NCBI GenBank assembly: GCA_019057795.1
Contig: JAHLWS010000063.1
Span: forward strand, 1 to 63,649
Source of the DNA: Promethearchaeota archaeon
GTDB lineage: Archaea; Asgardarchaeota; Lokiarchaeia; Sigyniarchaeales; SOKP01
DNA: 63,649 nt
Direction of reading: 5' to 3'
In this document: piece after piece, positions 23,502-23,752 of the stretch
Layout: each line of letters begins with the position of its first letter
Position numbering within the stretch: position 1 is the first letter of the stretch
The notes under the pieces: generated by a model
What the model saw: the letters and a program-made list of their open reading frames with translations, nothing else
Told to the model about the DNA's origin: nothing
The model's database searches: none
Position numbers and translations under genes: made by a program

Positions 23502-23689
23502 TTTTTATCAAAAATATTTTTTAATTAAATATAAAAATTGTACATGAAAATATCTGGTTCGCCATCATTTTTATAGTTTAATTCATTTATTTTTTTTCAA
23601 ACCTTTAAGTAAGAAGTATCAGATTTCAATTGATAGAAAAATTGGTATTTAATAAAAGTAAATTGTTTTTAAAAATATTCGAGAGAGCT

Positions 23690-23740
23690 TTCTCGTCTCA
23701 ATCGATAACTAGCGTTTTTTTACCGATCTCATAGATCATT
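23690..23740 (-). promoter_or_regulatory. Eukaryote-like SECIS element in the 3' UTR
   Basis: AUGA-G-AUCGGUAA-[AAAAACGCUAG]-UUAUCGAU-U-GA-G: UGAN/NGAN core, 8-bp stem with one G.U pair, A-rich apical loop. Confidence 0.75.
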
Positions 23741-23752
23741 TTTAAATATTTT

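Follow-up and report, generated by a model that had tools for sequence, protein, structure and literature searches.

We found that an element at positions 23746-23668 of the minus strand, directly behind a short gene with four in-frame TGA codons, is very probably a functional lokiSECIS in the 3' UTR of this 69-residue GDCCVxC-family gene, judging from sequence comparison. The window, by which we mean the whole 63,649-nt stretch of DNA analyzed, is contig 63 of a 4.95-Mb assembly with 31% GC. Our reading is based on the match in sequence and structure to published elements, the rarity of such sites in the genome, their association with TGA-containing ORFs, covariation, the contrast between TGA- and Cys-type orthologs, and the presence of Sec machinery. 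Because both the signal type and the use of one SECIS for many UGAs had already been published for Lokiarchaeota, the element mainly confirms known biology. Relative to the available text of the earlier papers, what is new is the gene family served, the TGA/Cys presence-absence contrast, and one more gene family with a three-way junction.

A short gene with four in-frame TGA codons

In the ORF list with TGA read as U, the gene occupies 69 codons on the minus strand (23753..23962), from the ATG at 23962 to the TAA at 23755-23753. Its only interruptions are the TGAs at codons 25, 47, 49, and 59, exactly as the original prediction had them, U-x-U pair included. Codon 25 (23888..23890, minus) lies 158 nt 5' of the SECIS AUGA, the UGA-ACC-UGA of codons 47-49 (23816..23824, minus) lies 92 and 86 nt away, and codon 59 (23786..23788, minus) follows at 56 nt. 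All four UGAs therefore span 105 nt within a single 210-nt cistron. To our knowledge, no archaeal protein is denser in Sec than this one, with 4 in 69 residues.

With U read as C, the whole length of the product aligns to NCBIfam NF041374, “GDCCVxC domain-containing (seleno)protein,” at 51 bits (cut-off 40); if no residue is placed at the stops, the score is 37 bits. A Pfam search with the four-Sec protein returned Zn-ribbon matches below threshold and nothing else, while the single match in a word-indexed protein search was an ortholog mistranslated with W. The protein shares the Zn-ribbon-like CPxCG...CxxC arrangement of the family and has Sec aligned with Cys at three conserved positions. 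It differs in carrying H-G-U-x-U-V-x-C where the family has G-D-C-C-V-x-C and in having four Sec; the Cys forms are found in other Asgard families and are widespread beyond them. It is probably a metal- or redox-active Zn-ribbon-like microprotein.

GDCCVxC proteins are not among the seven Asgard selenoprotein families in the accessible text of the 2024 survey (PMC11227280), nor in that of a 2026 review, and the family name did not occur in the literature searched. The four-Sec GDCCVxC family is thus absent from the Asgard selenoprotein catalogues as far as their available text goes, and gene callers truncate its members or mistranslate them with Trp.

The element behind the stop codon

On the minus strand, the TAA is followed by a 20-nt spacer and then by AUGA, a 9-bp stem, an 11-nt loop, and GA (23732-23698). 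The AUGA (23729..23732) is the 5' half of a kink-turn-type core; it fits the published definition and is the same in all aligned lokiSECIS except the ortholog variants described below. Helix II and its apical loop (23700..23728) consist of the 5' arm GAUCGGUAA (23728-23720), the loop AAAAACGCUAG (23719-23709), and the 3' arm UUAUCGAUU (23708-23700). The two arms form 9/9 pairs, two of them G.U, and the 11-nt loop has the AAAAA...AG form, with an A-rich start and a final G. The GA at 23698..23699 is the 3' half of the core, pairing as G.A and A.G with the GA of AUGA, and this position is GA or AA in all elements. After it come another GA, the third arm CGAGA-AAGCUC-UCUCG (23680..23695, minus), and then AAUAUUUUUAAA. 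The third arm has its CGAGA at 23695-23691, GC in its AAGCUC loop, and its UCUCG at 23684-23680. The letters and coordinates originally predicted for the hairpins after the stop were all exact.

A closing helix I was present in both the free and the constrained minimum-free-energy (MFE) folds. Its 5' strand UUUAAAAAUG is followed by a 4-nt spacer, AUCU (23737..23746 for the strand, minus), and its 3' strand UAUUUUUAAA (23668..23677, minus) holds a T5 run. The AU-rich flanks allow two pairing registers, namely AAAAAUAUU/AAUAUUUUU, as first proposed, and UUUAAAAAUG/UAUUUUUAAA, as in the free MFE fold; the register is ambiguous here because the strand is all A/U. Free folding of 23760-23660 gave an MFE of -17.3 kcal/mol (z = -2.46) and comprised the 9-bp helix, a 3' hairpin, and a 10-bp AU closing helix (23746-23737 with 23677-23668). 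In this free fold, the 3' hairpin takes an alternative third-arm register that would use up the core GA and that is not conserved in orthologs.

Assignment to the lokiSECIS class

By the published definition, a lokiSECIS has AUGA, a 9-bp stem, an 11-nt loop, and GA after the stem (AA in VhuU) (Mariotti 2016, PMC4989117). The first five loop bases are mostly A, the last is an ultraconserved G, usually with A before it, and the element sits close behind the stop codon (same source, in the portion available). The sequence and structure of our element show all seven published features exactly, and they also fall within the looser Asgard type I eSECIS-like model, with a stem of 7-15 bp and a loop of 8-20 nt (Huang 2024, PMC11227280, accessible text). 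Cys homology points the same way: the element stands 20 nt after the TAA of a gene whose four TGAs are kept in 14 orthologs and align with Cys. It further resembles published lokiSECIS, also named Asgard type I eSECIS-like elements, in being one element for several UGAs and in being matched by models based on VhuD, PrxL, and VhuU. It departs from the common form in its 3' junction, which is GAG where GAC is usual, and in its third-arm stem, which is CGAGA/UCUCG where ACCxx/xxGGU is common. It also serves GDCCVxC, which lies outside the Asgard selenoprotein families in the available text of PMC11227280 and of the 2026 review.

We searched both strands of the 4.95-Mb genome with a strict pattern, ATGA-N9-[>=4 A of 5]N5G-N9-[AG]A with at least 8/9 pairs, and found 10 sites, compared with 0-1 in each of five shuffles. 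Scoring with covariance models, which had been suggested as a check, was done with the element left out of training. R1, a core model built from the nine other own-genome sites, scored it at 25.9 bits (E = 4e-4 in the window, ~0.03 genome-wide), the best non-training match in the genome. R3, a three-way-junction model built from 37 elements, none from the window, matched 23673..23740 (minus) at 27.6 bits (E = 3.5e-5); no other match in the 63.6-kb window fell below E 0.3. These 26-28 bits compare with 40-54 bits for the VhuD, PrxL, and VhuU elements. Across the family, R1 found 2-13 such elements per genome in 41/41 sampled genomes. One further R1 match, at C77:15672, is apparently coding sequence and was judged to be chance.

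The element had been described as eukaryote-like and not of the methanogen type. Its AUGA/GA core is indeed that of Loki elements, and it resembles eukaryotic SECIS (Rfam SECIS_1) in the tandem G.A core, the unpaired apical adenines, and the 3'-UTR site, as well as SELENOP messages in having several Sec per message. The methanogen-type archaeal SECIS (eaSECIS) has a GC-rich lower stem, an asymmetric GAA_A bulge, and a short upper stem made only of GC; in our element, we found no GAA/A bulge between GC stems and no Rfam match to that type. The eukaryotic side of the description did not extend to a family match, as an Rfam scan of 23000-24500 at E<=10 returned no SECIS or other meaningful family. 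There is precedent for this, in that eukaryotic and archaeal SECIS models both missed Loki elements (Mariotti 2016, PMC4989117, as far as its available text reports). Two structural differences from eukaryotic SECIS also stand out. Helix II has 9 bp here, shorter than the eukaryotic stem, as the accessible text of PMC4989117 describes for lokiSECIS, and where the eukaryotic element has a plain internal loop, this one has a third arm on the 3' strand.

Other SECIS sites in the genome

At least 8 of the 10 strict sites follow ORFs with in-frame TGA. Those 1-20 nt after a TAA or TAG stop belong to three VhuD genes, PrxL, the four-Sec gene, and ORFs on contigs C26 and C78. The VhuD genes of this genome have two Sec each and carry lokiSECIS elements. 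At C22:32532-32566 (+; L031), a lokiSECIS adjoins a fourth VhuD/MvhD-type gene with two in-frame TGAs, and the UGA within the AUGA core serves as that gene's stop. At C60, the element is found 176 nt downstream of a hydrogenase large-subunit frame of FrhA type, and its core is AA, as published for VhuU.

Several sites accompany less familiar frames. At C26:54130-54164 (+; L033), the lokiSECIS begins 3 nt after a 74-codon stop-to-stop frame with one Sec (...PPDDNGGGULCLAVGYQK), a candidate small membrane selenoprotein. At C78:176805-176839 (+; L036), it lies 8 nt after a 158-residue ORF containing ...DVGCUU... and a third TGA. At C24:23608-23574 (-; L032), a lokiSECIS is perfect and has both helix I and a third arm, but no convincing TGA ORF lies 5' of it. 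The nearest ORF there encodes a 36-residue Zn-ribbon-like peptide (MIFCLKCK...CKVCKK...) and ends TGA-TAA 40 nt before the SECIS. On C26:15739-18500 (+; L007/L008), two tandem selD genes with one TGA each are followed by type II SECIS in which the closing helix I comprises 7 bp; that of selD2, the second gene, has a UUGA core in place of AUGA and a clear third arm.

The third arm as part of a predicted three-way junction

All 10 own-genome elements have a 4-6-bp hairpin 1-6 nt after the GA, with GC in the hairpin loop in 10/10, and a closing helix encloses most of them, e.g., AUCCCGUA/UACGGGAU at PrxL and AAUGUGUUA/UAACACAUU at one VhuD gene. Simple counting of hairpins and helices was dropped because it was too permissive (52% of random sites passed), and a constrained-fold topology test and covariation counts were used in its place. 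Each element was folded with helix II enforced, alongside 3000 controls with random genomic flanks. A three-way topology was predicted for 8/10 own elements compared with 12.9% of controls (binomial P ~3e-6). Because this test was designed after the ten own elements had been viewed, it was repeated on 29 elements from 29 other genomes, an independent check, yet one drawn from relatives. The topology was predicted in 24/29 of these, whatever gene preceded the element. The flanks of the ten own elements as a group also folded more stably than controls (Mann-Whitney p = 0.0014); by flank folding energy alone, 24% of random flanks fold as well as those of the four-Sec element.

Whole-element alignment with MAFFT misaligned the flanks, so a model-based alignment was used. 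R2, a three-way-junction model seeded on five VhuD elements, aligned 37 elements. In this alignment, which is fitted to the model, 92.7% of cells pair, compared with 68% when shuffled and at most 48% when slid, and helices I, II, and III (the third arm) are 91%, 95%, and 90% paired. Likewise with the alignment so fitted, changes on both sides occur in 20/20 pairs, including double changes in 5/5 pairs of helix III. The first helix II pair is non-standard in 17/37 elements, as it should be if this pair is part of the non-Watson-Crick core.

The accessory hairpin and closing helix in the original prediction are thus real structures, supported by covariation. However, the suggestion that they are a specific accessory raising processivity for multi-Sec messages is very unlikely to be right. 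The arm is kept beside the four-Sec gene in all same-genus orthologs and beside the two-Sec VhuD genes, as that idea would have it, but the same arm with a GC-containing loop follows the one-Sec PrxL, the C26 membrane ORF, and selD2. The arm is also present in 24/29 foreign elements whatever gene precedes them, and no trait of its form separates multi-Sec from single-Sec genes. The proposed comparison with the genome's own selD and VhuD elements showed a closing helix at both selD genes and a third arm at selD2 and the VhuD genes. Because third arm and closing helix flank one-Sec genes too, the arm is generic and no adaptation to four Sec codons. We conclude that the third arm and helix I are generic parts of a three-way junction common to lokiSECIS elements of the family.

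A third arm or junction is not mentioned in the available main texts of Mariotti 2016, Huang 2024, and Sun 2021, which describe a stem-loop only. The four-Sec gene adds an independent gene family to the evidence for Asgard SECIS as a three-way junction with a conserved third arm. Such a junction bears on the origin of the eukaryotic plain-internal-loop SECIS and on the search for an archaeal SECIS-binding protein. Three-way junctions built on a k-turn core, with the third helix coaxial with the C helix, are known as k-junctions (Wang et al. 2014, PMC4005666). The secondary-structure topology seen in the constrained folds and the 37-element alignment is compatible with a k-junction, a likeness of topology that implies no relation in sequence. 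Here, the third helix branches from the 3' (non-bulged) strand, at a point between helix I and the G.A pairs, which would permit stacking on helix I like that in the TPP riboswitch. The lokiSECIS junction may be a k-junction whose third arm stacks on helix I. We tentatively propose, with rather more doubt than confidence, the joint reading that a k-junction is needed by a putative Asgard SECIS-binding factor and that no natural substrate for testing processive decoding is more compact than the four-Sec gene. If this is true, the k-junction SECIS would stand architecturally between the signals of methanogens and those of eukaryotes, in a form absent from published models, as far as the accessible text describes them.

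TGA orthologs carry the element and Cys homologs lack it

Among 60 relatives of the order, we found 13 further orthologs in two families, 27-91% identical to the query, giving 14 with this gene. All four TGA codons are kept in 14/14 orthologs, and conservation goes on after each TGA. An exhaustive HMMER search returned 154 homologs. In the Cys forms (e.g., ...PEDVC...GDCCVFCSYGDTPC), Cys aligns with U25, U49, and U59, while U47, allowing for one inserted residue, corresponds to the leading Cys of the CC pair, so that codons 47 and 49 together correspond to the CC of the GDCCVxC motif. Three genomes of the order that are closed into a single contig carry the four-Sec gene as well, and we suspect that these are cultured strains. 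When 300 genomes of the phylum were searched with NF041374, the four-TGA form occurred only in two families of this order, and all-Cys forms occurred in three other families.

A SECIS-like element follows the gene in 14/14 TGA orthologs. R1 or R3 matched directly behind the gene in 11/14, and the remaining three are variants: one has a 12-nt loop (L026), one is of type II (L020), and one (L024, in a closed genome of 4.4 Mb) is type II-like and lies 111 nt beyond the stop. Another ortholog (L027, G047:C204:4975-5154, minus) has an AAGA core and a 12-nt loop and is still matched by R3. In this ortholog, a fifth TGA replaces the last Cys of the second CxxC (CGGU).

By contrast, at 30 all-Cys Asgard loci from the three other families, the 200 nt downstream contained neither a type I eSECIS-like motif nor an R1 match. 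The original prediction was to be given up if the hairpin were absent from TGA-containing orthologs or kept equally in Cys-only ones; with 14/14 TGA orthologs carrying the element and 0/30 Cys homologs doing so, neither outcome was seen. This contrast amounts to a natural experiment and supports a gain of the SECIS with Cys-to-Sec conversion inside one archaeal order. One homolog with two TGAs (L110, G257:C22:9644-9796, minus) was set aside: it is of the Cys type, its N-terminal CPxCG region is degraded with two TGAs, it has no SECIS, and it is probably a truncated or decaying GDCCVxC copy.

Covariation among the orthologs, the other check that had been proposed, supports the core, in agreement with the paralogous elements. 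Compensatory pairs in helix II include GAUCGGUAA/UUAUCGAUU, UAUCAAUAA/UUAUUGGUG, AACUGAUAA/UUAUCAGUU, and AAACUACUG/CAGUAGUUG. In an ortholog alignment fitted to the model, 90.9% of cells pair; shuffling lowers this to 54%, and sliding to 56% or less. Across the alignments, all fitted in this way, helix II is 93-95% paired with double changes in 9/9 pairs. In same-genus orthologs, the third arm is kept as CGAGA-N6-UCUCG, and its changes all preserve pairing through G.U.

These comparisons also bear on a more modest interpretation, in which the hairpin is a mere 3'-end element (a terminator or mRNA-stabilizing structure) and the ORF is a 24-residue peptide or pseudogene ending at the first TGA. 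The T5 run in the 3' strand of helix I and the further T-runs downstream would suit it, and the T5 run could be an archaeal termination signal; lying inside that strand, it would shorten the closing helix if termination took place there. However, 14 genomes from two families keep the frame with its four TGAs and show conservation beyond each TGA, the TGAs align with Cys residues of the family, and the Cys-type homologs are without the hairpin. The exact lokiSECIS signature, moreover, occurs in this genome almost only behind TGA-containing ORFs. We regard this interpretation as even less probable than a processivity accessory, and a SECIS as the far better account of the element.

Selenocysteine machinery and genetic code

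The genome encodes SepSecS (484 bits, above cut-off), a PSTK-like gene, and, 3.4 kb from SepSecS, an EFSec-like GTPase (232 bits). A tRNA-Sec was not found in the assembly, where Rfam RF01852 gave matches below cut-off only and ARAGORN gave none, whether or not introns were allowed; we treat this as a limit of the assembly or the model and not as a real absence. ARAGORN found 14 tRNA genes, or 18 with introns allowed, in this 4.95-Mb genome rated 100% complete, and most tRNAs probably escape it here owing to non-canonical introns. The genome fits a Loki-type Asgard archaeon that uses selenocysteine.

Five database proteins (P0001-P0004 and P0014) have W at the four Sec positions, and these are code-4 gene-calling miscalls on short contigs. 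That TGA is read as tryptophan or glycine under an alternative code, as these W residues would suggest, is scarcely credible, since TGA is the normal stop of 257/1988 long frames (13%), which speaks against genome-wide reassignment, table 11 leaves the neighboring genes open, homologs have Cys at these positions, and the genome has Sec machinery.

One probable SECIS for four UGA codons

The element at 23746-23668 is the only SECIS-like match of R1 and R3 in or near the four-Sec gene. All four UGAs, including the U-x-U pair, must therefore depend on it, and in this respect the claim of one element for four codons held. The further claim of a new archaeal parallel to SELENOP did not, because one SECIS for several UGAs was already published in 2016: in the available text of PMC4989117, one lokiSECIS is proposed to serve up to six UGAs over ~2 kb in hdrA-vhuD. 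The two cases share a single 3' element, several UGA codons, and the same organism group. They differ in that, relative to the published description, the four UGAs here lie in one short cistron, with two of them separated by one codon, and the last UGA is 56 nt from the SECIS core. The parallel to SELENOP is also incomplete, as SELENOP uses two SECIS elements (PMC4989117, accessible text) with divided roles, while the four-Sec gene has one. SECIS-UGA distance is uncritical in archaeal and eukaryotic systems; in Methanococcus maripaludis, the SECIS functions at 88 to 679 nt and also immediately after the CDS (PMC9622424).

By analogy with the eukaryotic system, decoding might proceed as follows. 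The gene and the element would be transcribed together, in an mRNA that would end at one of the T-runs after helix I. The tandem G.A pairs of AUGA and GA would form a kink-turn-like core at the base of the 9-bp helix with its A-rich 11-nt loop, and this G.A/A.G core would kink the RNA. A putative SECIS-binding factor and/or the archaeal EFSec with Sec-tRNASec may then be recruited to the core; no SBP2 is known in Asgard archaea according to the available text of PMC4989117 and PMC11227280. From this single site, the complex would reach ribosomes paused at any of the four UGAs, 56-158 nt upstream, and Sec would be inserted at each.

Occurrence in metagenomes

The DNA of the window recurs in marine-sediment and cold-seep metagenomes. 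A contig from a cold-seep run carries a G>T change at window position 23714 (+ strand G), equivalent to C>A in the apical loop, which gives AAAAAAGCUAG. The stem and the conserved ends of the loop are unaffected in this natural variant.
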